DNA from: an uncultured Desulfobacteraceae bacterium
Lineage (GTDB): Bacteria; Desulfobacterota; DSM-4660; Desulfatiglandales; Desulfatiglandaceae
Assembly: GCA_964543315.1 (NCBI GenBank)
Contig: CAZIXY010000001.1
Location: 1 to 42,725, forward strand
Direction: 5' to 3'
Length of the DNA: 42,725 nucleotides
Position numbers and translations under genes: made by a program. Positions 5,183-23,380 of the stretch are shown here, one piece after another. The first letter of the stretch is position 1; every line of letters starts with the position of its first letter. Below the pieces are notes generated by a model, which saw nothing but the letters and a program-made list of their open reading frames with translations, was not told the origin of the DNA and did not search any database.

Positions 5183-5670
5183 CTTTCCTCCTCCCCTGTT
5201 TTAAATATGGTCTCCAAAAATTGTGTTAAAAAAACCAGGGAGAGCGCAGCGCACCCCAAGGCGGCCCCGTAAGTAAAAGGGTAGTAAATGATTAGAAGGG
5301 TCTCGGTAACCTGTCCTGTCTCCCGAAGGATGTTTGCATATTTGGCTATTTGCACTGCCGCCACGCAGAAAAAGATCATACAGATTATGCTGTTTATACT
5401 ATGAAGAATCCTTTGGATTTTCTTTGAGAACCCCAGTACTAGAATATCAACAGAGATATGCCCCTTCCTGATTTGGGTGTACCCCAGAGCAAAAGCAGTT
5501 ACAATAGCTCCAAAGTAGCCCATCAGTTCATAAGTTCCTCTGATCGGTCCCCATATTAGTCGAAGAAAAATATTCGCGCACGTCAATACGATCATTGCCG
5601 ATAAAAAAACTCCGGCTATCCACATCAGAATCTGATTGACTACCCTGCAAAAATTTTCAAGGAACGCCAT
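5179..5670 (-). CDS. TRAP transporter small permease (DctQ family)
   Basis: 163 aa, four predicted TM helices. It sits between the DctP-like and DctM-like genes. Confidence 0.85.
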   Translation of the reverse strand: MAFLENFCRVVNQILMWIAGVFLSAMIVLTCANIFLRLIWGPIRGTYELMGYFGAIVTAFALGYTQIRKGHISVDILVLGFSKKIQRILHSINSIICMIFFCVAAVQIAKYANILRETGQVTETLLIIYYPFTYGAALGCAALSLVFLTQFLETIFKTGEEER

Positions 5671-5775
5671 CCCCTACTCCAATCCTTATCAAAACATAAA
5701 AGCTAGACCTGCATAACTCATGACCATTTTAATCCGTAATAAGCATCCGCTTATAAACCAGGGTTAAATATTTTT

Positions 5776-5821
5776 AGGTGGCTGCACAAAAAGGCGTATA
5801 ACCTCTTTAGTGCAACCACCT
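5776..5821 (-). other. Intercistronic stem-loop between the TRAP binding-protein and permease genes
   Basis: AGGTGGCTGCAC (5776-5787) pairs with GTGCAACCACCT (5810-5821), 11 of 12 positions. It lies immediately 3' of the dctP-like stop on the minus strand. It could be a partial terminator or an mRNA stabiliser that raises the binding protein to permease ratio. Confidence 0.4.
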
Positions 5822-5826
5822 TTTTT

Positions 5827-6852
5827 TTACTGACCGGAATACATTTTTGTAAATCCGACAATATCATCAACAATGGCTTTAGCCGGAAAGCCTTTGGCTT
5901 TAGCATCCGCAATCCACTTTCCCGTAATGGGCTTGAGCAAATTATCCCATTTATCTTTTTCCGTTTTTGAAAGTTGGATCACTTCAACGTTATGGGTTTT
6001 TTTCGACCACGCCATGGATTCATTTACATGATTATCCATATAGACACCCGTCCATGCCGACTGCTGGGGACCCAGCTCTTCCAATACCTTTTTGACATCC
6101 TGTGGCAGGCTGTTCCATTTTTTCATATTCATGACAACAGCAAAGGGGATAACACCAACGTTGATCATTGTCACATAACGGCATAACTCGGCAAATTTGA
6201 AATCCTTCATGACTTCCAAGGATGAGATCAGTCCTTTGACGGTTCCTTTTTGAAGTGCTTCCGGTGTTTGGGGCATCGGCATTCCTACAGGATTACCACC
6301 CAGGGTCTTGAGCACCACACCGGCACTTCCGGGAGCTCTAAGATCTAATCCTTTTAGGTCGGCAAGGTTCCTTACCGGAACTTTGCTCATAATATTAAAA
6401 GGTGCCGTGGTGAACATCGTAAGGACCTTTACTTTTTCAAACGCTTTCGGTTGGTACTTTTTATAAAGATCCCATAAGACAAGGCTTGAAACCGTTGCAC
6501 TTGGGGGATTAAGCGGCAGGGCAGTGGCGTTTGTCACAACAAACCTGCCCGGCTGGTATGCCATGCACAGGCAACCTATATCAGCGGTGCCTGCAATCAC
6601 TCCATCCATCATAGCCTTAGCCTTAAGCAGGGTCCCTCCCGGGAATGTCTTAATGGCGACCTTTCCATTGGTACGTTTTTCGACCTCCTTTTTCCACCTC
6701 TCCATCTGGACACATGGGAAAGTTGGAGCAGGTGGGAAGTTGGCATAATTCAGTTTGATCGGCGCCGCCGCGGCCGGCGCGGACATCCAGGTTATTGCAA
6801 AAACCATTGCTAAAAAAACTCCTGCCAGTATAAATCCTATTTTTCGTCTCAT
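5827..6852 (-). CDS. TRAP transporter periplasmic substrate-binding protein (DctP family)
   Basis: 341 aa. N-terminal signal peptide (ILAGVFLAMVFAITWMSAPAAAA). DctP-like sequence and operon context. Confidence 0.9.
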   Translation of the reverse strand: MRRKIGFILAGVFLAMVFAITWMSAPAAAAPIKLNYANFPPAPTFPCVQMERWKKEVEKRTNGKVAIKTFPGGTLLKAKAMMDGVIAGTADIGCLCMAYQPGRFVVTNATALPLNPPSATVSSLVLWDLYKKYQPKAFEKVKVLTMFTTAPFNIMSKVPVRNLADLKGLDLRAPGSAGVVLKTLGGNPVGMPMPQTPEALQKGTVKGLISSLEVMKDFKFAELCRYVTMINVGVIPFAVVMNMKKWNSLPQDVKKVLEELGPQQSAWTGVYMDNHVNESMAWSKKTHNVEVIQLSKTEKDKWDNLLKPITGKWIADAKAKGFPAKAIVDDIVGFTKMYSGQ

Positions 6853-6976
6853 GTCTCAGACCTCCTTATTGATGGAAAACCCGTTAACTTCATCGTCACG
6901 ATAAATTCTCCTTTCACCCCCTTTCTCTCACATTCAAAATCTTAAAGATTTACTGTTTGCTAAATCCGCTCCTCAT

Positions 6977-8605
6977 TTAAAAGATACTCGGCTCCGCATA
7001 TTCTCCGTAGACATCCCTGAAAACATCTGCCATTTCCCCAACAGTTGCATAGCACTTACAGCACTCAACCAAACAGGGCATAACATTCTTCTTTTCCCCG
7101 GCCGTTTTTTCAAGTGCCTTAAGGGATTCCTTAACGGCCTTATTGTCCCTGTCCCTTTTCAGCTCCTTGAGCCGGTCGATCTGCAATCGCTCCCATTCCT
7201 CGTTGTGCTCGTGGAGTTCCACCTCCATGTCGACACCTTCCGTAAATTTGTTCACGCCGACCTTTGTAACCTTTCCCTCCTGGATGTTTTTCTCAAACTC
7301 GTATGCCTGTTTCGCCACTTCTCTCTGCACATACCCCGAGGAAACAGCCTCGACCATACCGCCGGCTTTTTCCACTTTTGCCATCTCTTCCAGTATCTTT
7401 TCTTCCATTTCCTTTGTCAGGGTTTCAATGAAATAAGAGCCCGCAAGGGGATCCACGGTGTCCCTGAGCCCGATTTCATCCATAAGTATTTGAAAGGTTC
7501 GCAGGGATAACAGGGCGGCCCTTTCCGTGGGGATAGTATAGGCCTCGTCAAAGGAACAGAGTGCCGTGGTCTGTGCTCCGGATAGTGCCGCTCCAAGCGC
7601 GTAGTAGGCACCTCGCATGATATTATTTTCCGGCTGCTGCTTGGTCATCCCCGAGCCCCCTCCTCCGAAAATTCCGCGGAGAAAAAGGGCCTTTTTGTTC
7701 TGGACATCATATCTTTCCCTGAGTAACCTTGCCCACAGTTTGCGGGCGGCACGAAACTTTGCCACGGTCTCCCACAGGTTGCCGTAAATATTCAGGTTGA
7801 AAGAAAATCTTCCCACAAAGTCCTCAGCCTTGAACCCCCTGGCCACAACATTGTCAATATATGCGAAGGCGATCATCAATGCGTAGGAAATTTCCTGGGC
7901 CGGTGAACACCCCGATTCCCTGATGTGGTATCCCGCCACCGAAACCGGATTGCACCTCGGCAACTCCTTCATGGAGTACTCTATGGTATCGCCAATGAGT
8001 CGTACAGCCGGCTCAACGGGATAGATCCAGGCGCCTCGTCCGACGATTTCCTTAAGTATATCGTTCTGCGGTGTTGCTGAAATCTCTTCCTTCTTGTATC
8101 CGAATTTTTCAGCCACAGCCTGATACATGGCCAGCATAACGGAGGCAACGGCGTTGATGGTCAGTCCCGTCCCGATACGGTTGAGCTGGATATCCTTGAA
8201 CGCCATTTCAAAATCCTTGAGCGAATCGATTGCCATGCCCACGCGACCCACCTCGCCTTCGGCCATGGGATTATCAGAGTCATAACCCATCTGCGTGGGC
8301 AGGTCGAATGCCACGTTAAGCCCGGTCTGCCCGTGAGAAATCATGAGTTTGAACCGTTCGTTTGTCTCCTCGGGTGTGCCGAAACCCGTGTACTGGCGGG
8401 TGGTCCAGTTTCGACTTCTGAATCCAAGAGGGTGAATGGCGCGGGTAAAGGGAAATTCACCGGGATCCGCGAGATCCTTTTCATAATCAAAACCCACCCT
8501 TTCAAGGTCCTCCGGGGTATAAACCGGCTTAACCTTTATGCCCGACTGGAGGATGACTTCTTTAATGGCATCCTTTTCATCTTTTATGTAAGTTGCGACT
8601 CCCAT
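6977..8605 (-). CDS. Acyl-CoA mutase large (substrate-binding) subunit, methylmalonyl-CoA mutase family
   Basis: The ORF spans 6977-8698. The likely start is ATG 8605 (MGVATYIKDEK...), 16 nt after the stop of the B12-binding subunit gene. Conserved MCM-family blocks are present: RNWTTRQYTGFGT, GLNVAFDLPTQMGYDSDNP, NDILKE. Confidence 0.9.
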   Translation of the reverse strand: MGVATYIKDEKDAIKEVILQSGIKVKPVYTPEDLERVGFDYEKDLADPGEFPFTRAIHPLGFRSRNWTTRQYTGFGTPEETNERFKLMISHGQTGLNVAFDLPTQMGYDSDNPMAEGEVGRVGMAIDSLKDFEMAFKDIQLNRIGTGLTINAVASVMLAMYQAVAEKFGYKKEEISATPQNDILKEIVGRGAWIYPVEPAVRLIGDTIEYSMKELPRCNPVSVAGYHIRESGCSPAQEISYALMIAFAYIDNVVARGFKAEDFVGRFSFNLNIYGNLWETVAKFRAARKLWARLLRERYDVQNKKALFLRGIFGGGGSGMTKQQPENNIMRGAYYALGAALSGAQTTALCSFDEAYTIPTERAALLSLRTFQILMDEIGLRDTVDPLAGSYFIETLTKEMEEKILEEMAKVEKAGGMVEAVSSGYVQREVAKQAYEFEKNIQEGKVTKVGVNKFTEGVDMEVELHEHNEEWERLQIDRLKELKRDRDNKAVKESLKALEKTAGEKKNVMPCLVECCKCYATVGEMADVFRDVYGEYAEPSIF

Positions 8606-8621
8606 AAGTACCTCGAATGTT

Positions 8622-9020
8622 TTAATTTGATGCGTTTTCTTTAATAAAGTCCACAATATCCTGGAAATAACTGCCGCCGGGAAAGATCCCGCTGACACCT
8701 ATATCCTTGAGAGTGAGAACATCTTTATTCGGGATCACGCCTCCCACAACGACCAGTTTATTCCCTATGTCCTGCTCCTTGACAATTTTCATGAGTTTTT
8801 TGCAGATTGGAATATGGGCACCGGACATAATGGAAAGACCAATAACATCAACATCTTCTTGTATGGCCTGGTTAACTATGCCGGGAACTGTTTGATGAAG
8901 CCCGGTGTAAATGACTTCCATTCCAGCCTCCCTCATCGCATGCGCAACAACTTTGGCTCCCCTGTCGTGGCCGTCCAGCCCCGGTTTGGCCAGAAGCACC
9001 CTTATTTTTCTTTCTCCCAT
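8622..9020 (-). CDS. Acyl-CoA mutase small subunit, cobalamin-binding domain
   Basis: 132 aa. It carries the DxHxxG base-off/His-on motif (GLDGHDRGAKV) and a B12-binding Rossmann-like fold. Confidence 0.92.
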   Translation of the reverse strand: MGERKIRVLLAKPGLDGHDRGAKVVAHAMREAGMEVIYTGLHQTVPGIVNQAIQEDVDVIGLSIMSGAHIPICKKLMKIVKEQDIGNKLVVVGGVIPNKDVLTLKDIGVSGIFPGGSYFQDIVDFIKENASN

Positions 9021-9145
9021 TTATTTTCACTCCCGTAAATATATATACAGCCTTCACGTAAACATTATCGCAGTCAATGGCAGCGCTTCCTTTCCATGAT
9101 GCGCGGTCTGAGTCATCGTAAAATGTGCATCAAAGATAATAGTCC

Positions 9146-9862
9146 CTATTTCATGTCTTGTATATCAAATTCCTTTAGGACAACCTCCTGCCCCCTCAGG
9201 ATATGCTCCTTGACCAGGCTTTCCACCCTGTCGGAGTCTCTTTTTCTGATGTACTTGAGCATCAGTCTGTGATCACGGTTACTCGTCCTGGCCATGCTCT
9301 CCACCTCCAGGATGACCTGCCTGAAACGATAGATCTGGTCTTTCAGGTCATTGATTATTTTAATCAACCTGGGACTCTGGCTCAGGGCATAGAGAAGATC
9401 GTGAAATTCCGTATTGACCCGCAACAGGGTTTTTTTATCCCCCCTATCGAGATATTTTTGGTATTCGGCGATCTTTTCATCTAAAGGTGCGAGATCTTCC
9501 TCCCGGTGCTTGATGGCCGCGAGTCTGGCCGCATAACTCTCCAAAACGCTGCGAATGCCGAAGGTTTCCTCGATGTCAGCCTTTGTTAACCCGGCCACGA
9601 AGAAACCTCCTGCAGGATTTTTGCGGAGCAGGCTTTCCCGCTCCAGCTTGTGAATCGCTTCCCTTACAGGGGTCCGGCTGATTCCCAAGGCATCTGCCAC
9701 ACGAATTTCCACCAAACGACTTTCAGGGGCAAGATCACCTCTGACAATAGCCCTCTTGAGGCTCTCATAGACATTCTGGCCAAGCGACCTTCTCTCGGGT
9801 AACGCCTTTAATGTCTTGAAATAGGAATTTTCTATTTGTTGATTTCCTCTCACTCCGGCCAT
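9146..9862 (-). CDS. GntR-family transcriptional regulator (FadR/FCD-type C-terminal domain)
   Basis: 238 aa. N-terminal winged helix (VYESLKRAIVRGDLAPESRLVEIRVADALGISRTPVREAIHKLE) followed by an all-helical C-terminal domain. Confidence 0.9.
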   Translation of the reverse strand: MAGVRGNQQIENSYFKTLKALPERRSLGQNVYESLKRAIVRGDLAPESRLVEIRVADALGISRTPVREAIHKLERESLLRKNPAGGFFVAGLTKADIEETFGIRSVLESYAARLAAIKHREEDLAPLDEKIAEYQKYLDRGDKKTLLRVNTEFHDLLYALSQSPRLIKIINDLKDQIYRFRQVILEVESMARTSNRDHRLMLKYIRKRDSDRVESLVKEHILRGQEVVLKEFDIQDMK

Positions 9863-10032
9863 ATCGTCTTAAAACATCCGCTCCTGAAAAACGGGAATCC
9901 CTGGTACAAAATAATTGATTTTATCGGAGGTTGTTTCCTGTCTTGGGGTTCAGGTTTCCATCTGTGGTACCCGGAACCTGCTTTGTCAAAAAAAATGACC
10001 TCCATTCTGTTAACTCCAATTCGGAATGCTCA

Positions 10033-11220
10033 CTATATGACCTTATTTTCCTTGAGACGAGCCAGGTCATCATCCGAGTACCCCAGTGCGCCGTAAATTT
10101 CCTTATTTTGTTCCCCGAAACGCGGCGGAAAAGAAAGCTTTCGGTCCAGTTGTTCCAGAAATGGGGTCATATTGGGCGGGGGTGGCAAGAGTATTTTTTT
10201 CCCGGTGACCGGATCCTGTGAAGACAACAGCCTTCTTTCGACCAAGGGATCGGCGATCACCTCCGGAATGGTCTTTATTTTGCTTATGGGAAGCGTAAGG
10301 GAGTTGAATAGGTCAATCAGCTCTTCGGACGTGTGGTTTTTGGTAATATCGCTTATCTCGCGGTTCAAATTCTGCACGTCCCCTATTCGGCCGGCGTTTT
10401 TGTCGTATTCCGGCTTGTCCAGATGCTTGAACATCTCCAGGGATACCATGGATTTCCACTGCCGGTCATTTCCCACGGCCATGTAGACAAATCCATTGCT
10501 CGTCTGATAGACGGAAACCGGACAGAAAAATTCGTGGGTGTTGCCCCTGCGAGTTATCGCCTTATTGAAAAGCGTGGATAGGGTTATGGGCACCGTCATC
10601 CATGATACGGAAGATTCAAACATGGACATGTTGATACAAGACCCCTCCCCTGTTGCCTCTCTCTTGAATAGGGCCTTCATCAGGAGTCCATAGGAATGTT
10701 CGCTTGTTCCCATATCCGGAAGTGGGATGCCGACCACCTGGGGGTCTCCGTCAGCCTCGCCGGTCAGATCCATCATGCCCGATCTCGCCTGAAGGATTGG
10801 ATCATATGCCGCCTCATTGCTGTCGGGACCGAAACCGGTAACGCCGAGCCATATGATATCCGGTTTCAAGGCCTTCATGGACTCGTAATCAACTCCCAGC
10901 TTTTTATAGTTCCTGGGAAGCTGGTTGGTCGCAAAGATATCCACATGGAGTTCTTCAATCAGAGAATGGAATATCTTCTGCCCTTCCTGGTCACCCAAAT
11001 TCAATGTGAGTGCCTCTTTGCCTGAATTTATGCACAGGTAATAGGCGTTCATCCTCTCCTCTCCAAGCACATTGTCACCTATTAGCCTGTTCGGATCCCC
11101 GTATACAGGATGTTCAAGTCGGATAACCCGCATGCCGTCTTGCGCCAGCCTGTAAGTCAAATAGGGCAGGACAGTCGCCTGTTCAAGAGATAATACGGTA
11201 ATGTTTTTGAAAAAATCCAT
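10033..11220 (-). CDS. Family III CoA-transferase (CaiB/BaiF/Frc family; BbsEF/IaaL-like)
   Basis: 395 aa. Typical N-terminus (ITVLSLEQATVLPYLTYRLAQDGMRVIRLEHP) and typical length. Confidence 0.9.
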   Translation of the reverse strand: MDFFKNITVLSLEQATVLPYLTYRLAQDGMRVIRLEHPVYGDPNRLIGDNVLGEERMNAYYLCINSGKEALTLNLGDQEGQKIFHSLIEELHVDIFATNQLPRNYKKLGVDYESMKALKPDIIWLGVTGFGPDSNEAAYDPILQARSGMMDLTGEADGDPQVVGIPLPDMGTSEHSYGLLMKALFKREATGEGSCINMSMFESSVSWMTVPITLSTLFNKAITRRGNTHEFFCPVSVYQTSNGFVYMAVGNDRQWKSMVSLEMFKHLDKPEYDKNAGRIGDVQNLNREISDITKNHTSEELIDLFNSLTLPISKIKTIPEVIADPLVERRLLSSQDPVTGKKILLPPPPNMTPFLEQLDRKLSFPPRFGEQNKEIYGALGYSDDDLARLKENKVI

Positions 11221-11337
11221 GATTTCCCCCTTTCGGGCCGGAGGCCAGGAATAATAATGGGTTGGTGTTTAATGAAGGGCAACTTCAAATAAGCTTTTCA
11301 AGCATTTGTGTACTGTATACAATATGCACTGTCAAGG
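11149..11337. repeat. Copy A of a duplicated segment: CoA-transferase 5' codons, 5'-UTR and promoter
   Basis: Aligns by eye with 18083-18269 in the same orientation, roughly 80% identity. The pair includes a perfectly identical 33-bp block (11305-11337 = 18237-18269). Confidence 0.85.
11307..11335 (-). promoter_or_regulatory. Putative sigma70 promoter of the catabolic operon with an embedded palindromic operator
   Basis: On the minus strand: perfect -35 TTGACA (11335-11330), a 17-nt spacer, and -10 TACACA (11312-11307). The 8-bp palindrome TGTATACA (11314-11321) lies in the spacer. The start codon is ~85 nt downstream. Confidence 0.5.
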
Positions 11338-11427
11338 AATTTTTCCCCGGAAAATTAACGGATGCCACCATTTTTGGATACAAAACAAGGTAGCTGGTCT
11401 TGGCTGGAAAAAACCGCCTTAATGCAG

Positions 11428-11841
11428 TCATTGACAGGGGCTTTGGTAGGGTCCTAATTTTTTAATCTCGCTGGTAAAGTCATTGATTACCCGGGCAAAT
11501 TTTAATCCTTCTGCCGCGGAGAGCCATTCAAGTCTTATCCTTCTGTTATCTATCCCCAACTGGGTGATCAAATTCTTTAAGAGCATTATCCTTCTTCGAG
11601 CCTTGTAATTACCAGCCTGGTAATGGCAGCTTCCCAAGTCTCAACCTCCAACAAAAACACCATCCGCCCCCAAATTAAATGCCTCAGTGATATGTAAGGG
11701 GTCAACGGCTCCCGAGCACATTACCCTGATTATCCTCAAGTTGGCAGGGTATCGGATGCGGCTTGTTCCCGCCAGATCTGCCGCCCTATAGACACACCAA
11801 TTGCAACAAAAACCCACAATTTTCGGTTCAAATGTATTCAC
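11428..11841 (-). CDS. mvhD: MvhD-type hydrogenase/heterodisulfide-reductase-associated [2Fe-2S] subunit, selenocysteine-containing (in-frame TGA at 11643-11641)
   Basis: ORFs 11641-11919 and 11428-11637 are in the same frame, separated only by TGA. The joined sequence reads ...[45 protein letters not shown]...[27 protein letters not shown]. This matches the MvhD consensus ...VGGCHxGDCHY with the first Cys replaced by TGA. The likely start is GTG 11841 (GAAGG RBS 7 nt upstream), giving [16 protein letters not shown] 11877 and the track's upstream start at 11919 (apparently non-ATG by my reading) are alternatives. Confidence 0.8.
11608..11624 (-). promoter_or_regulatory. Candidate bacterial SECIS hairpin for the mvhD UGA
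   Basis: The mRNA reads UGA-GACUUGGGAAGCUGCC-AUUACC-AGGCU-GGUAAU. This is a 6-bp stem (extendable by GCC/GGC) with a G-rich 5-nt loop. The stem starts 16 nt (17th base) after the UGA. Confidence 0.5.
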
Positions 11842-12090
11842 GGTTTTACCTTCTTTATATCTTGCACAAATTTGCATATTAGGGTAAGGGCAGGTGTGTG
11901 TCAATCTCAAATCTATCAATACGTTTCCAGGAAAAAGCTCTGTTCAGTTAGCTCTATCATTCCTGTGTTTGATGTGATAGCAAAAAAATCGTATCAGTTC
12001 ATAGGTTCAGAGTACTGATTTCACCGAAAGCCCGCATATTCTTCTGCGCGCAGGTCTGAACCTGGGAATACCTAAGACAAGGAGATGGAA

Positions 12091-13071
12091 ATGGCTAAGC
12101 CAAAGATCGCCTTTTATTCATGTGCTTCATGTGGAGGGTGTGAGGAAGCAGTCATTAACCTTGATGAAGATATACTGAACGTGGCGGATGCTGTGGATAT
12201 CATACAATGGCCTACGATCCTGGATTTTAAGAGGAAGGATCTTGAAGCCTTGGGAGATGGTGAGATAGTGGTGAGCTTCATAAATGGAGCAGTAAGGCTC
12301 GGTGAACAGGAGGAAATGGTAAATCTCTTAAGGCAAAAGTCTCAGCTCATAGTCGCCTTTGGTTCTTGTGCTCATTTGGGAGGGATACCGGGTCTGGGTA
12401 ACCTCTACACGAGGGATGCGATTTTACAAAGGATTTATAAGGAAGTCCCGACTGTTGAAAATCCAGAGGGAATTATTCCACAGGAGAGGACAACCATTGA
12501 TACTGGCGAGCTCACTCTGCCGGAGTTTTATGATACGGTAAAGACCTTGGGTCAGGTCATCCCGGTGGATTACTACCTTCCCGGGTGTCCACCGCCTTCT
12601 CACTTGATAATGAGTGCGTTAAGTGCATTTCTTAAGGGTGAATTACCGGAAAAGGGGGCAGTGCTTGCTCCTGGTAAACCTTTATGTGATACCTGCCCCA
12701 GGGCGGAGGAAAGACGGGGGGGAGTATCAATACAGGAAATAAAAAGACCACACGAAATTAAACTCAGCCCCTGGAAGTGTTTTCTTGAGCAGGGGATAAT
12801 CTGCCTTGGTTCGGTTACCCGCTCAGGGTGCGGAGAAAGGTGCATTAAAGCTAATATGCCGTGCAGGGGGTGTATGGGTCCTGCCGAAGGGACTGTAGAT
12901 CAAGGGATAAAAGCCCTTTCAGTTATTGCATCCATATTGGGACTTGAAGGAGAAGAAGGGATGACAGAGGAAGAGGTTAAAAAATTACTCGATGGCATTG
13001 AAGACCCGGCAGGGACATTTTACAGATTCAGCATGCCCACTTCTCTCCTTATAAGAAGGAAAATGAAATAG
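12091..13071 (+). CDS. mvhG: [NiFe] hydrogenase small subunit, Mvh/group-3c type (MvhG-like)
   Basis: The ORF starts at 12085, but ATG 12091 has better spacing to AAGGAG. The N-terminus KIAFYSCASCGGCEE, plus GSCAHLGG and LPGCPPP, provide the proximal-cluster cysteines. CDTCP, the CFLEQGIIC segment and CGERCIKANMPCRGC supply further Fe-S ligands. Confidence 0.88.
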   Translation: MAKPKIAFYSCASCGGCEEAVINLDEDILNVADAVDIIQWPTILDFKRKDLEALGDGEIVVSFINGAVRLGEQEEMVNLLRQKSQLIVAFGSCAHLGGIPGLGNLYTRDAILQRIYKEVPTVENPEGIIPQERTTIDTGELTLPEFYDTVKTLGQVIPVDYYLPGCPPPSHLIMSALSAFLKGELPEKGAVLAPGKPLCDTCPRAEERRGGVSIQEIKRPHEIKLSPWKCFLEQGIICLGSVTRSGCGERCIKANMPCRGCMGPAEGTVDQGIKALSVIASILGLEGEEGMTEEEVKKLLDGIEDPAGTFYRFSMPTSLLIRRKMK

Positions 13072-13080
13072 GAGGACAGA

Positions 13081-14454
13081 GTGAGAAAGATAACCATAGA
13101 CCCGGTAACAAGAATTGAAGGGCATGGGAAGATAGAGATATTACTTGATAAGGAAGGGGAGGTTGAAAGAGCCTATTTTCAAACCCCGGGGCTTCGCGGG
13201 TTCGAGAAATTTTGTGAGGGAAGACCGGCCGAAGAGATGCCTAGAATAACGCAAAGGATCTGTGGCGGAAGTTCAACAGCTCACCACATGGCGTCGACCA
13301 AGGCCCTTGATGACCTTTTCAAGGTTGAGCCGACCCCGGTGGCAAAGAATATACGAGAATTGATGTACAATGCCTTCATTGCAGAACACCATATTTTGCA
13401 TTTCTTTTTCCTTGGTGGACCCGACTTTTTTGTCGGTCCGCGAGAAACCGCCAAAGAAAGGAATATCATGGGGGTTATTGCCAAGGCCGGGATGGAAGTG
13501 AGAGATAAAATCATAGAGGCAAGGAAAAGGCTGAGAGGAGTTATGGAAGCAATAGGGGGGAAGGTGATTCACCCTGTTTGCGGGCTGCCCGGAGGAATAT
13601 CAAAACCTGTAACCGAGGAGGAAAGAAAAGACTTTATAAGGGCGGCTGAATACTTAGTAGAATTTTCCGTATTTGTCGCGTTTGACATTTGGGACAATAT
13701 GGTGCTTAAAAAAAAGGACTATCTCGATTTTATCACAGGAGATGTTTATAAGCAAAGGACCTACTACATGGGTCTGGTGGATGAGAATAATAAGGTAAAT
13801 TATTACGATGGTCTCATAAGGGTGGTTGACCCAAATGGTAAAGAATTTGCCAGATTTGAGGCTCAGGAATACCCTGATCATATCAGGGAACATGTTGAGC
13901 CGTGGACCTATGAGAAATTTTCCTACCTCAAGAACGTAGGCTGGAAGGGATTTGTTAGCGGTGAAGAGAGCGGCGTTTTCAAAGTAGGACCACTGGCCCG
14001 GCTGAATGCAGCCGACGGAATGGCGACTCCACTGGCTCAAGAATACTATGAAAAAATGTATGCAGCATTGGGTGAGAAACCGGCACACAATACCCTTGCT
14101 TTCCACTGGGCCAGGCTCATTGAGCTGGTTTACACCTCTGAGAGGATGCTGGACCTTGTCGGCGACCCGGATCTTACTTCCCCTGATGTGATAAATATAC
14201 CGGCCGAAATTCCAACACAAGGGGTGGGAGTGGTAGAAGCACCGGAAGGGACCCTTTTCCATCAATACGAAACTGATGAAAGGGGGATTGTCACAGGGGC
14301 CAATTTGATTGAACCCGTGCAAAACAATTCAGCTTCTATTTGTATGTCTATCGAGAAGGCGGCTAAATCGCTTATACATAAAGGCAAGGTCACGGATAGT
14401 ATTCTCAATATGATTGAGATGGCAATCAGGGCCTATGATCCCTGTAATGCCTGA
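13081..14454 (+). CDS. mvhA: [NiFe] hydrogenase large-subunit homologue, Mvh/group-3c type, with atypical active-site motifs
   Basis: GTG start 5 nt after GGAGGA. The TRIEGHGKIE (L0) motif and overall MvhA-like sequence are present. However, RICGGSSTAHH replaces RxCGxCxxxH, EAPEGTLFH replaces EAPRGxLxH, and the ORF ends DPCNA-TGA where DPCxxCxxH is expected. Confidence 0.85.
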   Translation: MRKITIDPVTRIEGHGKIEILLDKEGEVERAYFQTPGLRGFEKFCEGRPAEEMPRITQRICGGSSTAHHMASTKALDDLFKVEPTPVAKNIRELMYNAFIAEHHILHFFFLGGPDFFVGPRETAKERNIMGVIAKAGMEVRDKIIEARKRLRGVMEAIGGKVIHPVCGLPGGISKPVTEEERKDFIRAAEYLVEFSVFVAFDIWDNMVLKKKDYLDFITGDVYKQRTYYMGLVDENNKVNYYDGLIRVVDPNGKEFARFEAQEYPDHIREHVEPWTYEKFSYLKNVGWKGFVSGEESGVFKVGPLARLNAADGMATPLAQEYYEKMYAALGEKPAHNTLAFHWARLIELVYTSERMLDLVGDPDLTSPDVINIPAEIPTQGVGVVEAPEGTLFHQYETDERGIVTGANLIEPVQNNSASICMSIEKAAKSLIHKGKVTDSILNMIEMAIRAYDPCNA

Positions 14455-14488
14455 GCTACCCCCTCACCTCCAGGAAAAATATCAGACT

Positions 14489-15493
14489 CTACCCTCCAAG
14501 TAATGCCTTACACTCCTCGATTAATGGGGGCAAAACCTTTCGATAATCTGCGATTACTCCAAGATCAGAGACCTTAAACATACCTGCATCAGAATCCTTA
14601 TTTATTGCCACTATAAGCTTTGACTCCGAGCAGCCGGCAATATGCTGCGATGCGCCACGTATCCCGACTGCAATATAAAGGTCAGGCTTTACAGTCTTGC
14701 CTGAATCTCCAATTACCATACTTGTTGTGGGCACCCAGCCTTCATCATAAGGCACCGTCGTTGTACCTACAGCACCCCCTAATATCTTGGCAAAATCTTG
14801 AAGAAGCTGAAAGCCCTCAGCATCGCCAATTCCTCCTCCGCCGGCAATTATTACCTTAGCGTCCTCGATCTTTATTCCTTCCACCTCTTCTTTTGTTGTG
14901 CTCACCAATTTGGTTCTTATTACTGAATCATCTATTGTCACCTTGATATTTTCGACTTCGCCCTTTCTTGAGCTATCGGGTTCAAGTGGTGTCATGGCCC
15001 TTGGTTTTATAGTTGCCAACTGCGGCCGGGAATCTTTGGAAACCATCTCTGCAATAGCATTCCCGCCGTAAACCGACCGGGTCTGAACCAAAGTTTTGCT
15101 ATCCGGATCCATATCAACATTAATGCAGTTCATGAAAGGGAAGCACCCTAATCTAAAAGCTACCCTGCCAGCTACATCGCGTCCCATAGTTGTGTGCCCT
15201 AATAAAACAACAGACGGCCCTATTTGCTGACAAGCCTGGGTAATTGCAGCGGTATAGCTATCGGGGTTGTACTCGGACAGCAAGGGGTCATCTGCCAGAT
15301 AGACATTATCCGCCCCATAGAGGATAGCTTCCTCACCGCTTTCCCGAATATCGCTTCCTATGATGAGTGCGCTTAAGTTTCCGTCAAGTCCTTCGGCCAG
15401 CATTTTCCCGACACCCAGCAATTCCTTAGTAATTGCTGTAATCTTCCCCTCTTCCTGTTCTCCGCAGATCAGCACTGCACTATTTTGAGCCAT
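14489..15493 (-). CDS. etfA: Electron transfer flavoprotein alpha subunit
   Basis: 334 aa. C-terminal FAD-binding signature PDLYIAVGIRGASQHIAG. It sits immediately downstream of etfB. Confidence 0.93.
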   Translation of the reverse strand: MAQNSAVLICGEQEEGKITAITKELLGVGKMLAEGLDGNLSALIIGSDIRESGEEAILYGADNVYLADDPLLSEYNPDSYTAAITQACQQIGPSVVLLGHTTMGRDVAGRVAFRLGCFPFMNCINVDMDPDSKTLVQTRSVYGGNAIAEMVSKDSRPQLATIKPRAMTPLEPDSSRKGEVENIKVTIDDSVIRTKLVSTTKEEVEGIKIEDAKVIIAGGGGIGDAEGFQLLQDFAKILGGAVGTTTVPYDEGWVPTTSMVIGDSGKTVKPDLYIAVGIRGASQHIAGCSESKLIVAINKDSDAGMFKVSDLGVIADYRKVLPPLIEECKALLGG

Positions 15494-15508
15494 TCGATTC
15501 CTCCTTTT

Positions 15509-16306
15509 TTATATCACTCCGGCCGCTCTCAGCTTCGCTGCCAGATTTCCAGCGACCTCCTCCGGAGCTTCGCCACCGATGATTTCACATTTTCTTCCTC
15601 GCTCAGGGATAGAGAGTTTCAGCAGGTTAGATCCTTCGGCACTTGCTCCGATGAGGGAGACATCAGCATTAATATCCTGATTTGACCAAACCGGAATTTC
15701 CTTACGCACTGCACTTACGATACCCATTCCAGTGGGTAGGCGAGGCAAGCCAATCTCATTGCTCACAGTCAGTACTGCCGGCAGGGAGACCTCAAATACC
15801 TGATGGCCGTCTGGAATTGTTCTTTCAACCTTTAAAAGATTATCATCTAATAGTTCAATATCTTTGGCTAAGCTAATGTGAGGCAGATTTAGTCTCTCGG
15901 CTAAGACGGCGCCGACTGTGCCCATACTCCAATCAGCTGCTTCCCTCCCGCACAAGACCAGGTCAAAGGCATCAATTTTCTGTATTGCCTGGGCCAGGAT
16001 ATAAGCTGTAGCAAGGCTGTCCGAACCCGCAAACGCATCATCATACAGGACAATTCCCTCATCAGCCCCCATGGCCAAAGCACGCCTGACCACCTCTTTA
16101 GACTCATCAGTTCCTACGGTTATTGCTGTTATCTTGCCTCCATGTTTTTCCTTGACTCGCAGCGCAGCCTCTACTGCTTGAGCGTCATAAGGATTCATCA
16201 CTAATGGTATTCCCTCAGGTGGAATCACCTGGTTATCCTTAAGCCTAAATTTTTCCGTCGGCATCTCGGGGTCCAGGACTTGCTTAACGCATACCACAAT
16301 ATTCAT
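15509..16306 (-). CDS. etfB: Electron transfer flavoprotein beta subunit
   Basis: 265 aa. It has the N-terminus MNIVVCVKQVLDP characteristic of EtfB/FixA. Confidence 0.93.
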   Translation of the reverse strand: MNIVVCVKQVLDPEMPTEKFRLKDNQVIPPEGIPLVMNPYDAQAVEAALRVKEKHGGKITAITVGTDESKEVVRRALAMGADEGIVLYDDAFAGSDSLATAYILAQAIQKIDAFDLVLCGREAADWSMGTVGAVLAERLNLPHISLAKDIELLDDNLLKVERTIPDGHQVFEVSLPAVLTVSNEIGLPRLPTGMGIVSAVRKEIPVWSNQDINADVSLIGASAEGSNLLKLSIPERGRKCEIIGGEAPEEVAGNLAAKLRAAGVI

Positions 16307-16442: not shown

Positions 16443-17597
16443 CTAAGAGAAAGCAGGTATCCCCAAAAGCTGCTGCCCAATAGTCAACTGGTGTATTTGT
16501 GCTGACCCGCCCAGTATCGTAGCTACTATAGCATCTTGATAGTGGTGCCCCACGGGATAGTCATCAACAGTGCCAAAGGCACCATGAATCTTAATTGCCT
16601 GAGATGATACCCAGAGCGCCGTCTCTGTACTAAAATACTTGGAGCAGGACATCTCTTTGATATGCCTGATCCCCCGGGTCTTCATATCCGCTACACGATA
16701 GGCAAGCCATCTGGCTGCCTCAATCTTCATTGCCATATCAGCGATGACCCCCTGTACCAACTGATGGCCACCTATGGGCTTTCCAAACTGGACTCGCTCC
16801 TTGGCATACTTTACACACGAGTCAAGACAACTCTGGGCTACACCAACACAACCGGCGGCCAAGAAAAGACGGGCAGTATCAATACCTCGCAGGGCATCCC
16901 TCAAAGCTCGCCCGGTCTCCCCAACCTTGTTCTCCAGGGGTACCTTTACATCGCTGAATCTTAAGTTGCCCTCACTACCACCTCGCCAGCCTAACTTACC
17001 TTTTAGAGGCACGCTTGAGAAACCCGGCATACCCCTCTCAATTATAAATGTGGCAAGCCCTTTAAGACCTTTGGCTTTATCTGTCTGGCAAATGACCAAA
17101 AGGACGTCACCTATTTCGCCATTAGTAATAAAGATCTTATTACCATTGATGAGCCAGTGGTCGCCTTCTAATACGGCAGTGGTCTCAATCCTGGACGAAT
17201 CACTACCGGCATTAGGTTCAACTACAGCACCGACCAGAATCGAATCACCACGACACACCGAGGGCAGGTATTTCTGCTTCTGCTCCTCACTACCCGCATC
17301 CAAAAGATTAGTTCCCGGTTGGATGCAGCCGCTTGTCGCCGCCTGGGTTATAGCGAGGCTGGCCCAGCAAAGCTGCTCCCAAATAATAGCCGAGGTAAGA
17401 TAATCAAGCCCCAATCCTCCGTATTCCTGGGGCAAATGTGGAGCTAAGAGTCCCTGTGATGCCAGCTTTTTTATAATCCCAGGGTCAAATTTGTCCTCAC
17501 GGATATTCTCCTTGAGCGTTGGCAAAATCTCCCGTTCGGCAAACTTCCGTGCCATATCCTGAAACATCTTCTGCTCTTCATTTAGCTGAAAATCCAT
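16443..17597 (-). CDS. Acyl-CoA dehydrogenase
   Basis: 384 aa. ACAD architecture and typical N-terminus (MDFQLNEEQKMFQDMARKFAEREI), with a C-terminal helical domain. Confidence 0.92.
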   Translation of the reverse strand: MDFQLNEEQKMFQDMARKFAEREILPTLKENIREDKFDPGIIKKLASQGLLAPHLPQEYGGLGLDYLTSAIIWEQLCWASLAITQAATSGCIQPGTNLLDAGSEEQKQKYLPSVCRGDSILVGAVVEPNAGSDSSRIETTAVLEGDHWLINGNKIFITNGEIGDVLLVICQTDKAKGLKGLATFIIERGMPGFSSVPLKGKLGWRGGSEGNLRFSDVKVPLENKVGETGRALRDALRGIDTARLFLAAGCVGVAQSCLDSCVKYAKERVQFGKPIGGHQLVQGVIADMAMKIEAARWLAYRVADMKTRGIRHIKEMSCSKYFSTETALWVSSQAIKIHGAFGTVDDYPVGHHYQDAIVATILGGSAQIHQLTIGQQLLGIPAFS

Positions 17598-17617: not shown

Positions 17618-18013
17618 TTAGTCCTTCTGGACAAGCTCAACAAGGATGCCATGAGTCCCCTTGGGGTGAAGAAAGGCGCTTAATCCCTCGGCACCGGGCA
17701 TCGGCTTTCCCAGGGCATCAATCCCTTTATCCTTAAGCGAACCAATTTCCGCGTTGATATCATCCACCTCATAGCAGACATGTTGTATACCCTCACCGCG
17801 CTTTTCCAGGAATCTGGATATCGGTCCATCTTTGCCAACAGGCTCTAAGAGCTCAACAGTAGCATTCTCTAACTCCACCATGCTTACCCTAACCGTTCCT
17901 CCTCCTCCAATTATTGGTTCAGACGATTCAAGCCCAAAGACCGAACGATAAAACTCCCTGGCTTCCTCAAGGTCTTTTACTGCCATACCCAGATGACTAA
18001 TCGCTTTTAGCAT
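17618..18013 (-). CDS. Methylmalonyl-CoA epimerase-like VOC (glyoxalase-fold) protein
   Basis: 131 aa. Sequence features HLGMAV...ELLEP...FLEKRGEGIQHVCYEV...ILVELVQ are typical of methylmalonyl-CoA epimerases. Confidence 0.85.
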   Translation of the reverse strand: MLKAISHLGMAVKDLEEAREFYRSVFGLESSEPIIGGGGTVRVSMVELENATVELLEPVGKDGPISRFLEKRGEGIQHVCYEVDDINAEIGSLKDKGIDALGKPMPGAEGLSAFLHPKGTHGILVELVQKD

Positions 18014-20962: not shown

Positions 20963-22168
20963 TTACAAGAGGCTGGCATTCAGAAAGTCGGGGTTCAGTT
21001 TTTTCAAGATACGTACCATATTGTTCAACTGCACCTGTACCGTCCCCTCGTACATCTCCACAATGCGGTTATCCCGGTATCTGCGTTCCACGTCCTGTTC
21101 CAGGAAATACCCATATCCTCCGAACACGGTTATGGCGTCATCAATGACTCCCTTGGCGGTTTCCGGAACATAGTGTTTGACCATGGATGTGAGCAGGGGG
21201 ACGGTGGCGGCCATTTTGCGGGGCGTATGGTCACAAAACCAGGCCGATTGATAAGTGAGCCATTTCATTGATTGAACCTGGCTCCACATCCTTGCCAATT
21301 TATGCCCTATACCCTGGAAATCAATGATCGGTCGATTGAATTGCTTCCTGCCTTTTGCATGAATCAGCGCCTTTAGAAACGCCCCTTCTGCAATACCCAG
21401 TGACTGTGCCGCTATCTCGATGCGGCTTTCATCGAGAAAATCCAGGATATTCATAAGACCTCGTCCCTTTTCACCTAATAAATTCGCGCTGGGCACCTCC
21501 AGGTTTTTGAAGACCAGTTCTCCGCTGGAAGACATCCTCAGGCCCATTTTGTTGGGGATCTCGTTGATCTCCAGCTCCCCGCCCATCCACGTCGACGGAT
21601 CACGGTCAACAAGCAGGGTGCTCATGCCCTGACCCCGTCTCGCCTCCTGATCGGTCTGGCAGAGGACGATGAAAAAGTCGGCGTAGCCGGCATTTGTCGT
21701 AAAGATCTTGGTCCCGTCAATAATATACCGGTCATCCTTTTCCACCGCGGTCGTCGCCATGGCCGTAATGTCGCTTCCGTGGTCCGGCTCTGTGAAAGAT
21801 ACGGCCGAAACAGAGTCCCCCTGTATCATGGGGCTCAGGAATTTTCGATGCTGCTCCGGCGTGCCGAAAAACTTCACGATCTTTGCCGGCAGGTATGCCA
21901 GATGAATCGCCATGCCGATACCGGAGTCGGCCTTGCAAAATTCCTCCACCGCAAGCACGTTTTCCATGACGCCGAGGCCTTCACCCCCGATTTCCTTGGG
22001 ATAGTTCAGTCCTATGAATCCCAGTTCCCCGGCCTGCTTATAGAGATCTTTCGGAAATTTGTGATTCAACTCATATTCAACAGCCCTTTCAGAAGAAAAC
22101 TCTCCCTCTGCAAATTCCGCTGCAGCCCTCTTGATGTCTCTCTGTTCCCTTGTAAGTGAAAAGTCCAT
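20963..22168 (-). CDS. Acyl-CoA dehydrogenase
   Basis: 401 aa. ACAD family (MDFSLTREQRDIKRAAAEFAEGEF... and a C-terminal YEGTVQVQ block). Confidence 0.9.
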   Translation of the reverse strand: MDFSLTREQRDIKRAAAEFAEGEFSSERAVEYELNHKFPKDLYKQAGELGFIGLNYPKEIGGEGLGVMENVLAVEEFCKADSGIGMAIHLAYLPAKIVKFFGTPEQHRKFLSPMIQGDSVSAVSFTEPDHGSDITAMATTAVEKDDRYIIDGTKIFTTNAGYADFFIVLCQTDQEARRGQGMSTLLVDRDPSTWMGGELEINEIPNKMGLRMSSSGELVFKNLEVPSANLLGEKGRGLMNILDFLDESRIEIAAQSLGIAEGAFLKALIHAKGRKQFNRPIIDFQGIGHKLARMWSQVQSMKWLTYQSAWFCDHTPRKMAATVPLLTSMVKHYVPETAKGVIDDAITVFGGYGYFLEQDVERRYRDNRIVEMYEGTVQVQLNNMVRILKKLNPDFLNASLL

Positions 22169-22228
22169 AGCGTCTTCTCCACATTAAATCACTTATTTTT
22201 TGTTCATATTAAAATCTTAAATGGGCAC

Positions 22229-23380
22229 TTACTTGTATCTGGCAATCGCCTTACCACTCCTTATCATCTCTTTTCCGATAATCATCCTCTGGATTTGATT
22301 GGTGCCCTCAAAAATCTGAGTCAGTTTGGCATCCCTGAACATCCTTTCCAGGGGATAGTCCTTAGTATAGCCGTATCCACCGAGTATCTGGACCATGTCC
22401 GTAGTGATCTTCATGGACGCGTCACTGCAGAAATATTTTGACATGGAGGCCAGGTCGGTGTTCGGTTTTCCCGCATCGTGCATGAGGGCGGCCCTTTCCA
22501 TCAGTCCCCGTCCCGCCTCTATTTGTGTGCTGGCATCCGCTAACATGAACTGTATGGCCTGGTGCTCGACAAGGCTTTTTCCAAAAGAGGTGCGGTTGAG
22601 GGCGTATTCAAGAGCGTATTGCACGGCCCCTTCCGCAATGCCCAGTGCAAGGGCCGCCACAGCCGGGCGTGACATGTCAAAATCCGCCATGGCAATGGCA
22701 AAACCGTCTCCCGGCTTCCCCAGCATGTTTTCCTTGGATACAACAACATCTTCAAGGATCACCTCGGATGTATTGCTGCCGCGAAACCCGCATTTATCCT
22801 CCACCTTTCCAATGCTGATACCGTCCTGGTTCCTGTCTACGACAAAGAAAGAAAGCTCCTTTTCCCCTGATCTTGCAAGCACCGAATAGATGCCGGCTAC
22901 TGCCCCGTTTGTGGCAAAGACCTTTCTTCCGTTCAAGACATAGTTTTCACTGGAGGGCTTTGCAGTGCACGTAATGGCCTGCACGTCCGATCCGGCCCCG
23001 GGCTCGCTGACCAGGTAGGCGATCAGTTCACGCCCCTCTGAAATCCTTGGAAAACACCTTTCTTTTTGTCGCTGATTGGCGGCTGAGATAATGGGAAAGC
23101 TGCCTACGGCCTGAATGACCAAAAGTAGCGCTGAAGAAGCACAGGCCTTGGAAATTTCCTCAATGGAAAGGCAGAGAGTATGACACGGATTGTGCGGCCA
23201 GCCGCCATAGGTCTCGGGGAGCATGATCTGAAGGAGGCCCATGTCCCAGAATAAGGAGACCGTGTTCCAGTTAAACTCGCCTTTTCTGTCAATTTCTCCG
23301 GCAACCGGTGCTATTTTGTCTTTGACAAGCCTTCCCAGGTTGTCTAACAGGATTTTTTGGTCTTCCGTAGTCTCGATCAT
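22229..23380 (-). CDS. Acyl-CoA dehydrogenase
   Basis: 383 aa. ACAD family (C-terminal IFEGTNQIQRMIIG). Confidence 0.92.
   Translation of the reverse strand: MIETTEDQKILLDNLGRLVKDKIAPVAGEIDRKGEFNWNTVSLFWDMGLLQIMLPETYGGWPHNPCHTLCLSIEEISKACASSALLLVIQAVGSFPIISAANQRQKERCFPRISEGRELIAYLVSEPGAGSDVQAITCTAKPSSENYVLNGRKVFATNGAVAGIYSVLARSGEKELSFFVVDRNQDGISIGKVEDKCGFRGSNTSEVILEDVVVSKENMLGKPGDGFAIAMADFDMSRPAVAALALGIAEGAVQYALEYALNRTSFGKSLVEHQAIQFMLADASTQIEAGRGLMERAALMHDAGKPNTDLASMSKYFCSDASMKITTDMVQILGGYGYTKDYPLERMFRDAKLTQIFEGTNQIQRMIIGKEMIRSGKAIARYK

Follow-up and report, generated by a model that had tools for sequence, protein, structure and literature searches.

The gene mvhA' (positions 13081 to 14454, forward strand, of the 42,725-nucleotide stretch of DNA analysed here, referred to as the window) encodes a truncated [NiFe]-hydrogenase large-subunit homologue without an active site, which we regard, with a probability of about 0.7, as a hydrogenase-derived, non-catalytic scaffold for an iron-sulfur subunit in an ETF/Hdr-linked complex. 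The ORF comprises 457 amino acids, starts with GTG and ends with TGA. A ribosome-binding site read from the sequence, AGGAGGA (13070 to 13076, forward strand), is located 4 nt upstream of the GTG and overlaps the stop codon of mvhG, which implies translational coupling of the two genes. The product matched PF00374 in a Pfam scan (E = 7.6e-25, 88 bits), and phmmer aligned its residues 2-455 to the MvhA chain of solved structure, 5ODC_F, with an E value of 1.4e-101. Judged by these alignments, the homology of mvhA' to MvhA is genuine and spans the whole protein.

Three catalytic signatures deviate in this protein, and each was located correctly by the first-pass annotation. The N-terminal nickel-binding motif, RICGVCPTAH in canonical enzymes, reads RICGGSSTAH (R59-H68; 13255 to 13284, forward strand), with Ser64 (AGT, 13270-13272) replacing the second Cys. 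The motif EAPEGTLFH (14233 to 14259, forward strand) carries Glu389 (GAA, 14245-14247) in place of the invariant Arg. The C-terminal motif is reduced to D-P-C-N-A followed by TGA (14437 to 14454, forward strand), the TGA at 14452-14454 occupying the codon of the fourth Cys; read as a stop, it leaves the C-terminal peptide ...MIEMAIRAYDPCNA and an ORF ending in ...AYDPCNA. The motifs had been placed by hand, and the phmmer alignment to 5ODC_F agrees with that placement: RICGGS falls on RICGIC and EAPEG on EAPRG, and the final DPC meets the C-terminal motif at its first Cys. In a comparison with 154 canonical group-3c homologues, the Arg, the first, third and fourth Cys and the His are each invariant (154/154), and the deviations are far beyond chance. 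Directly after the TGA, a nucleotide comparison revealed an untranslated fossil of the ancestral tail (14455 to 14481, forward strand; ATPSPPGKI versus canonical ATHSLPGRM), which is identical at 19 of 27 nt to the tail of the canonical, closely related locus L165 (CATHSLPGRM) and was not found in other members of the truncated clade described below. An AlphaFold2 model of mvhA' built on a 30-sequence alignment (A1) had a mean pLDDT of 52.7 and was set aside, the alignment being too shallow (near-identical homologues only). An assignment of D103H to the Asp that pairs with the Arg of the active site was considered and dropped, as position 103 is unconserved in group 3c and is Ser in 5ODC_F.

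The window protein belongs to a clade of 22 sequences, 21 of them 457 residues long and one 454, which is monophyletic in 100 of 100 neighbour-joining bootstraps and nests inside the group-3c relatives. Its sister is a canonical protein (P0017) whose locus, L166, has the gene order acd-mvhG-mvhA-etfB-etfA. A scan of metagenome contigs returned almost only canonical relatives, and DNA for the truncated clade was gathered protein by protein. This search for orthologues found the TGA in 10 of 11 clade loci and, at the Arg column, Glu in 8 and Gly in 14 members, versus Arg in 154/154 canonical sequences. The C-terminal Cys and His of DPCxxCxxH are present in 0/22 clade members, as opposed to 154/154. 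Common to the entire clade is the loss of the Arg, the His and the bridging Cys of the C-terminus; the earlier description of a subunit lacking both bridging cysteines holds for the window sequence and not for the clade, in most of whose members three Cys of the original four persist together with the N-terminal RxEGH glutamate. At least five independent losses have affected these three remaining Cys, each of which has in one lineage or another changed to Ser or been deleted, the window included.

Ser64 itself is private to the window protein; the 21 other members, among them the closest relative (P0123), have Cys (TGT or TGC) at this position. As a singleton that differs from TGT by one base, the AGT might be put down to an assembly or sequencing error, but we find this unlikely: a random error would have to strike one specific base in 42.7 kb, and comparable Cys-to-Ser changes are seen at other ligand positions in sequences from independent contigs, namely P0016 and P0126 (three contigs) and P0004, P0005, P0008 and P0012.

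Changes in the protein cluster in the Ni-Fe motifs. The 154 canonical homologues share 122 sites with an invariance of at least 97%. The clade departs from them at 18 of these sites, comprising 11 of the 24 that lie within the Ni-Fe motifs and 7 of the 98 elsewhere (Fisher p = 2.5e-5; the motif windows of this test were chosen by us from prior knowledge of the motifs). The dN/dS ratio of the clade is 0.14-0.21 at dS values of up to about 1, and that of canonical relatives is 0.06-0.11. The gene is still under purifying selection, and the clade consists of sediment bacteria that keep it in this state. The possibility that mvhA' is a decaying, functionless pseudogene is consistent with its origin in a nonsense mutation, with the degeneration of the catalytic residues and with a dN/dS about twice that of canonical relatives, but we judge it very unlikely, as the low ratio is held over a dS of about 1, the 22 distinct ORFs are intact, free of frameshifts and near-uniform in length, 104 of the 122 family-invariant sites are retained, and a strong ribosome-binding site and the coupling to an intact mvhG are kept.

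The TGA of mvhA' is a genuine stop codon. The first-pass annotation had weighed this against selenocysteine at the fourth, bridging ligand, that is, a non-canonical [NiFeSe] site. For selenocysteine speak the position of the TGA exactly on an invariant Cys column, its presence in 10 of 11 clade loci and the ability of the organism to decode selenocysteine, as seen in mvhD. Selenocysteine at the other bridging position is also known: 15 N-terminal CxxU variants were seen among the relatives of the mvhA' protein, and others are in the literature. The exception to the TGA is L167, in which a 33-nt deletion took out the codon so that the ORF ends in DP-TAA. Variants with an N-terminal CxxU have been reported (PMC13582414, which cites Baltazar 2011), so that a bridging selenocysteine, which the annotation had termed unprecedented, has precedents in general.

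What follows the codon argues for termination. In the window, read-through would add 40 codons (ATPSPPGK...), the next stop lying at 14575-14577, and the extended frame would run into etfA, as the annotation had noted. No read-through peptide is conserved among 10 related loci: the continuations (ATPSPP.., TGFSVKP*, AEF*, TRSPFSY*, PKTIVFG* and similar) run in most loci for only 3-8 codons to the next stop, and in none of the clade loci compared do they restore the C-terminal His. The gap between the TGA and the convergent etfA measures only 19-34 nt. The window segment after the TGA folds weakly (MFE -2.3 kcal/mol, z = +0.7), and RNAalifold found a consensus structure of 0 pairs 3' of the mvhA' TGA in eight loci; its positive control, the TGA of mvhD, is followed by a conserved 15-pair hairpin. 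Both halves of the earlier observation, no convincing SECIS element after mvhA' and a hairpin at mvhD, were thereby confirmed. An Rfam scan of 11300-14700 reported no SECIS family and missed the genuine mvhD site as well, making it uninformative. No clade member has Cys at the TGA codon. Like [NiFeSe] hydrogenases, then, mvhA' has an in-frame TGA aligned with a nickel-ligand Cys in a host that decodes selenocysteine; the downstream frame, the hairpin and the alternation with Cys that mark the genuine cases (the 15 CxxU relatives and mvhD) are all missing. The loss of the Arg in all members and the sporadic loss of other ligands are, moreover, incompatible with a working site. Collectively, unconserved read-through, no conserved hairpin and a clade member without the TGA identify the codon as a stop; the selenocysteine reading is already largely refuted, and we assign it next to no weight. 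Retention of the TGA in 10 of 11 loci is explained by common descent and is no proof of codon neutrality. An alternative genetic code was ruled out, since TGA is the ordinary stop of 9 of 29 genes in the window. The other reading of the annotation, a stop that creates a degenerate or neofunctionalised group-3c module analogous to NuoD or Ehr, is supported and extends to a whole conserved clade.

The genes beside mvhA' encode an intact set of redox partners. MvhG (12085 to 13071, forward strand; PF01058), the hydrogenase small subunit, aligned to 5ODC_E with an E value of 7.7e-68 and with every cluster Cys matched; all 12 iron-sulfur Cys columns, and with them the three clusters, are conserved in all truncated-clade and canonical loci examined, bearing out the earlier statement that MvhG retains its cysteines. 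Divergent from mvhG lies mvhD, of the FlpD family (11428 to 11919, reverse strand; start codon uncertain, TTG at 11919 or ATG at 11877), with an in-frame TGA for selenocysteine at 11638-11640. Each part of the interrupted mvhD frame matches one half of PF02662, and the sequence downstream of the TGA is conserved. Besides the window, L001, L081 and L083 have TGA at this codon; L082 and the canonical L165 encode Cys there.

On the other side, convergent on mvhA', are etfA (14489-15493, reverse strand) and etfB (15509-16306, reverse strand), identified by PF01012 and PF00766 matches and together spanning 14489 to 16306; in the PDB, EtfB is matched best by bifurcating ETFs. They are followed by genes for an acyl-CoA dehydrogenase (16443-17597, reverse strand) and a glyoxalase-family protein, a putative epimerase (17618-18013, reverse strand), both assigned by Pfam matches and syntenic in L082. 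The acyl-CoA dehydrogenase is 76% identical to the one heading the canonical acd-mvhGA-etfBA operon of L166. A family III CoA-transferase (10033 to 11220, reverse strand; PF02515) is encoded downstream of mvhD and is syntenic in L001, L081 and L083. In the clade, mvhD and etfAB always lie beside mvhA', etfA being the gene directly downstream in 10 of 10 truncated-clade loci with flanking sequence. In one subclade HdrA-like and HdrCB-like genes adjoin the module (in L170 the order is mvhD, a Fer4+CCG protein and an HdrA-like fragment); the subclade to which the window belongs has no Hdr genes next to mvhA'. The Pfam scan of the 26 large ORFs of the window returned no hyp or protease maturation genes, as had been noted from the sequence, and no HycI or Hyp genes were found at truncated loci over spans of 9-43 kb; the canonical L165 has HycI and HypFCDEAB next door. 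Genes for a membrane complex were not found in the window.

Compared with MvhA of the HdrABC-MvhAGD complex (group 3c, PDB 5ODC), mvhA' is homologous over its full length (E about 1e-101) and lies beside like partners, MvhG with three clusters and MvhD, with Hdr-like genes in one subclade. These are the group-3c features that it has: large-subunit homology and a co-encoded iron-sulfur small subunit with MvhD. It is missing RxCGxCxxxH with both Cys (the L1 motif is altered in the clade, and the window protein also lacks the second Cys), DPCxxCxxH with both Cys and the His, the Arg of (E)APRG, the cleavable C-terminal extension for endopeptidase processing and neighbouring maturation genes, and it is linked instead to EtfAB and an acyl-CoA dehydrogenase. 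With the nickel-iron site lost and the protein kept with other partners, mvhA' does not qualify as a hydrogen enzyme and cannot be filed as a hydrogenase. It resembles VhuA of Methanococcus voltae in that the large-subunit gene ends before the C-terminal nickel ligands. In Vhu, an active enzyme, a separate small peptide, VhuU, provides the DPUxxCxxH segment in trans, whereas mvhA' misses the last Cys-x-x-His only; a complementing peptide of this type was looked for and not found, none of the six frames of the 42.7-kb window containing an ORF with such a motif.

NuoD/Nqo4 of complex I, MbxL/MbsL of the membrane-bound sulfane reductase and the Ehr large subunits are hydrogenase-derived proteins that have lost some or all of the nickel-ligating cysteines. 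They stem from membrane-bound group 4, sit on antiporter-like modules and mostly retain the proximal cluster only. Like them, mvhA' keeps the large-subunit fold under selection after the loss of nickel ligands and retains its iron-sulfur partner; unlike them, it derives from soluble group 3c, has the three MvhG clusters and MvhD, originated by a simple nonsense mutation and has no membrane subunits encoded nearby. The likeness is therefore one of evolutionary logic and not of family membership.

The comparisons above give mvhA' the following history. It descends from a canonical [NiFe] hydrogenase of group 3c (Mvh type) whose genes were linked to those for EtfAB and an acyl-CoA dehydrogenase. 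The founding event was a change of the fourth Ni-Fe Cys codon from TGY to TGA, which probably happened once; with it went the bridging Cys, the C-terminal His and the tail processed by the protease. A Ni-Fe(CN)2CO site can no longer assemble, and selection on it collapsed; the Arg changed to Glu or Gly, residues beside the N-terminal Cys changed as well, and the leftover three Cys are disappearing independently by lineage, the window having lost the second to Ser. The protein itself is retained under purifying selection, in translational coupling with an MvhG that has its proximal, medial and distal clusters, and beside a selenocysteine-containing MvhD. By analogy with NuoD and NuoB, MvhA' may survive as an obligatory folding and scaffolding partner of MvhG, the MvhA'G-MvhD module forming part of a cytoplasmic electron-transfer complex that would serve the adjacent EtfAB/acyl-CoA dehydrogenase and, in one subclade, also the adjacent HdrA-like and HdrCB-like pair. 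MvhA' would then handle no H2. Gene neighbourhood, selection and the analogy point to this scaffold or relay role; the etfAB synteny within one clade may simply be inherited, and the dead Ni-Fe site leaves the MvhG cluster chain ending at the proximal cluster, so that a role in electron relay is not obvious.

The two other functional explanations both retain catalysis. Residual H2 turnover at a three-cysteine or other non-canonical metal site would fit the clade members in which three Cys and the RxEGH glutamate persist, but it is highly improbable given that each of these Cys is dispensable somewhere, the window included, that the Arg, the His and the maturation tail are gone, and that maturation genes are not nearby as they are in canonical L165. 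More deserving of attention, if still doubtful, is a repurposing of the old Ni-Fe pocket: a newly gained ligand or catalytic site would be supplied by the proximal cluster of MvhG, which would make the protein part of an active oxidoreductase. In NuoD the former hydrogenase pocket has been reused as a quinone site, and in MbsL as a sulfur site, so that group-4 derivatives offer a precedent. G63, S65 and P412 are invariant in 22/22 clade members where canonical sequences have invariant V, P and A (V63G and P65S replacing residues found in 154/154), and these fixed residues could signify a new constraint in the old pocket; continuing purifying selection and the three MvhG clusters, more than a scaffold would obviously need, point the same way. 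Against it stand the key pocket residues, which are variable and not newly fixed (389 toggles between Glu and Gly, 411 and 413 each show 4-5 residues, and Asp453 alternates with Gly), the dispensability of every remaining Cys in some lineage, and a sequence that suggests no candidate substrate or cofactor. In its fullest form, which we hold with equal reserve, MvhA'-MvhG-MvhD(Sec) would be an unrecognised soluble redox module, descended from a group-3c hydrogenase, that couples acyl-CoA dehydrogenase/EtfAB to an Hdr-like flavin-based bifurcating or confurcating system.

Taken together, mvhA' is best read as a loss of the NuoD/MbsL/Ehr type within soluble group 3c, and the literature searched contained no account of an Mvh clade without an active site. 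Its members are named 'Ni/Fe hydrogenase subunit alpha' or 'F420-non-reducing hydrogenase large subunit' in public databases, so that metagenomic surveys counting them would ascribe H2 metabolism to these sediment bacteria in error. The truncated clade represents an early stage of the process that made complex I and MBS from group-4 hydrogenases: one founding mutation can be identified, a fossil of the lost sequence survives, and the ligands are in mid-decay. It raises the question of why a three-cluster iron-sulfur subunit and its dead partner are kept beside an ETF, an acyl-CoA dehydrogenase and Hdr-like genes, and the canonical sister in its acd-etf operon may be a new H2-coupled ETF system. 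If the pocket proved to be repurposed, the module would be a new solution to energetically difficult acyl-CoA oxidation in sediment Desulfobacterota, and the canonical sister (acd-mvhGA-etfBA) would be an equally uncharacterised H2-linked ETF complex.

The mvhA' gene (13081-14454, + strand) starts at a GTG codon, preceded by an AGGAGGA ribosome-binding site that shares nucleotides with the stop codon of mvhG, the small-subunit gene upstream, and encodes a 457-residue protein that matches PF00374 (Ni-dependent hydrogenase family). Residues 2-455 were aligned to 5ODC_F, MvhA as solved in the HdrABC-MvhAGD complex (E = 1.4e-101); the alignment bore out the placement by hand of three altered motifs in the first-pass annotation. 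In the first, RICGGSSTAHH pairs with RICGICQVAHH and Ser (AGT, 13270-13272) replaces the second Cys; in the second, EAPEGTLFH matches EAPRGTLIH and the Arg position is taken by Glu (14245-14247); in the third, the reading frame ends in AYDPCNA-TGA, with the stop (14452-14454) at the codon of the last Cys. AlphaFold2, run on a shallow alignment, gave a pLDDT of 52.7.

A search of 5.8 billion proteins yielded 18 clusters of 454-457 residues that share this end point and are 75-92% identical to the query, as well as hundreds of canonical relatives (group-3c, or Mvh-type, homologues with full Ni-Fe motifs; 485-491 residues), the nearest 79% identical. With cluster members included, 22 distinct truncated sequences form a monophyletic clade (100/100 neighbour-joining bootstraps), whose sister comprises the canonical P0017 (locus L166), P0018 and P0019. 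The truncation is a conserved feature of this clade and not a one-off: the fourth Cys and all residues C-terminal to it are missing throughout. The Arg is kept in none of the 22 members (Glu in 8, Gly in 14), and V63G and P65S are fixed in the first motif. Ser at the second Cys occurs only in the window; the other 21/21 members have Cys. Among metagenome contigs, almost only canonical relatives were found. One otherwise canonical locus, L090 (71% identical), reads ...SLIHKGEVLMAFST*, an early stop near codon 442 of its MvhA homologue that is suggestive of a frameshift or a misassembly.

If TGA 14452-14454 encoded selenocysteine (Sec), translation would, as previously annotated, continue for 40 codons to 14575-14577 and overlap etfA. 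TGA occupies the fourth-Cys codon in 10 of the 11 truncated-clade loci for which DNA was obtained, and in the window the 27 nt that follow resemble the canonical tail (ATPSPPGKI versus ATHSLPGRM; 19/27 nt identical to canonical L165). Among clade loci, the sequence 3' of the TGA is unconserved and the next stop mostly falls within 3-8 codons, giving read-through peptides such as TGFSVKP*, AEF*, TRSPFSY* and PKTIVFG*. The eleventh locus, L167, carries a 33-nt deletion that removes Cys-Asn-Ala-TGA, so that its mvhA' ends at a TAA directly after Asp-Pro and overlaps etfA. The absence of a SECIS hairpin held up, with the 60 nt after the window TGA folding at only -2.3 kcal/mol (z = +0.7) and RNAalifold finding no consensus base pairs after the TGA in eight clade loci. 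The unconserved read-through, the missing hairpin and the lack of a TGA in L167 rule out Sec. The TGA is a stop, a codon that also terminates 9/29 ordinary window genes, and the 27-nt remnant is the fossil of a TGY-to-TGA nonsense mutation.

As a positive control, mvhD (11428-11919, - strand) contains an in-frame TGA (11638-11640) reading VGG-U-DLGSCHY. Four loci have TGA here, whereas L082 and canonical L165 encode Cys; coding conservation extends past this codon, and 3' of the UGA lies a 15-pair hairpin that is itself conserved. mvhD is a selenoprotein gene. Rfam detected no SECIS, even at this site. ORF callers break mvhD into two fragments.

Decay of the active site was quantified against 154 canonical group-3c homologues, whose alignment has 122 columns with an invariance of 97% or more. 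Of these columns, 18 differ in the truncated clade (V63, P65, R389, L392, H395, V411, T413, D453, C455, C458, H461 and seven others): 11/24 inside four Ni-Fe motif windows, picked from prior knowledge of the motifs, versus 7/98 outside (Fisher p = 2.5e-5). The three leftover Cys were lost at least five times independently on the clade tree: the first became Ser in P0016 and P0126 (three contigs), the second became Ser in the window, and the third became Ser in P0012, P0008 and P0004/P0005 and was deleted in P0009. The 154 canonical proteins vary at none of these positions, apart from Sec in place of the second Cys in some; the repeated losses therefore exclude a working Ni-Fe or Ni-Fe-Se site. 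Pairwise dN/dS in the clade is 0.14-0.21 (dS up to about 1.0), compared with 0.06-0.11 in canonical relatives; constraint is thus relaxed about twofold, yet selection is clearly purifying. No frameshifts were found in mvhA' across the clade. The co-translated MvhG aligns to 5ODC_E, the solved MvhG (E = 7.7e-68), and its Fe-S cysteines are, as first annotated, all kept (12/12 cluster Cys in every clade locus examined).

The conserved gene order is divergent mvhD, mvhG-mvhA', then convergent etfA-etfB-acd-epimerase, with etfA directly 3' of mvhA' in 10/10 clade loci with flanking sequence. The intervening gap is 19-34 nt, except in L001 (about 510 nt; 11375-11887). In most members the mvhA' stop codon lies within a short hairpin, TGAACGnnnnnnnCGTTCA, in the 20-30-nt gap before etfA (L001 11372-11390, L082 3431-3449, L083 6112-6130; just past the stop in L168/L170). 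This hairpin, absent from the window and L081, is a possible bidirectional terminator. The missing maturation genes proved general, none being present in any truncated-clade locus across 9-43 kb of sequence. A canonical relative (76% identical) has, instead of adjacent ETF genes, an HdrA-like gene, HycI, MvhD and HypFCDEAB beside it. Next after mvhD in one subclade of the truncated sequences come genes for a Fer4+2xCCG (HdrCB-like) protein and a fragment of an HdrA-like flavoprotein. Window EtfB is nearest to bifurcating ETFs (CarD 6FAH, E = 4e-48). In etfB (15509-16306, - strand) the conserved bifurcating-ETF motif GRQAIDGDTAQVG reads GREAADWSMGTVG, a form common to all truncated-clade loci; L166 has GRQAADWDEGLVG, and ETFs beside more distant canonical hydrogenases retain GRQAIDGDTAQVG. 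Elsewhere in the window (1544-11220 and 20963-23380) lie genes for an FAD subunit of a Mo-hydroxylase, a phenylacetate-CoA-ligase-like enzyme, a TRAP transporter (DctPQM), a split B12-dependent acyl-CoA mutase (573 + 132 residues), a GntR regulator, a family III CoA-transferase and two more acyl-CoA dehydrogenases with an IclR regulator, which suggests organic acid catabolism via CoA esters.

From synteny and selection we infer that MvhA' is a scaffold for MvhG: it would be kept as the structural partner of this Fe-S subunit in a cytoplasmic complex that also contains MvhD and serves the ETF/acyl-CoA dehydrogenase system, as well as Hdr-like proteins in loci that encode them. The group-4 descendants NuoD, MbxL/MbsL and Ehr have lost Ni ligands and retained the fold, and by analogy with NuoD or MbsL the old Ni-Fe pocket might have been repurposed. 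Such repurposing is the less likely reading, as the pocket residues vary and have not become newly fixed. Unlike these proteins, MvhA' derives from soluble group 3c, the three clusters of its small subunit and MvhD are all kept, its clade probably goes back to a single traceable founding mutation, and it is linked to ETF. Nor is MvhA' a Vhu-type split subunit, since the window has no VhuU-like ORF.

The earlier view that Sec at a bridging position would be unprecedented does not stand, although the window TGA is no such case: N-terminal CxxU variants are mentioned in PMC13582414, citing Baltazar 2011, and occur in 15 relatives. These canonical group-3c large subunits (L107, L022, L115, L027, L124, L125, L128, L140, L139, L039, L143, L144, L145, L054 and L067), mostly from Dehalococcoidia but also from 'Ca. 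Desulfopertinax', carry an in-frame TGA at the second Cys (codon 64; RICGV-U-PGAHH), and read through to 488-492 residues; a hairpin, GGCCUCGUGUAAGGCC, recurs about 19 nt 3' of the TGA. CxxU in group 3c looks far commoner than the one Group 3 sequence for which PMC13582414 reports it.

The sister canonical hydrogenase, with all motifs intact, lies inside a colinear acd-mvhG-mvhA-etfB-etfA operon (L166 1-5763), and more distant canonical group-3c loci (L089, L093, L094 and L100) have etfBA immediately downstream. The acd-mvhGA-etfBA arrangement may represent an uncharacterised H2-linked ETF/acyl-CoA dehydrogenase complex. No description of an active-site-less Mvh clade was found in the literature searched. 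The truncated clade corrects a systematic mis-annotation, offers a clean snapshot of a hydrogenase becoming a pseudo-enzyme, and points to uncharacterised Mvh-ETF systems.
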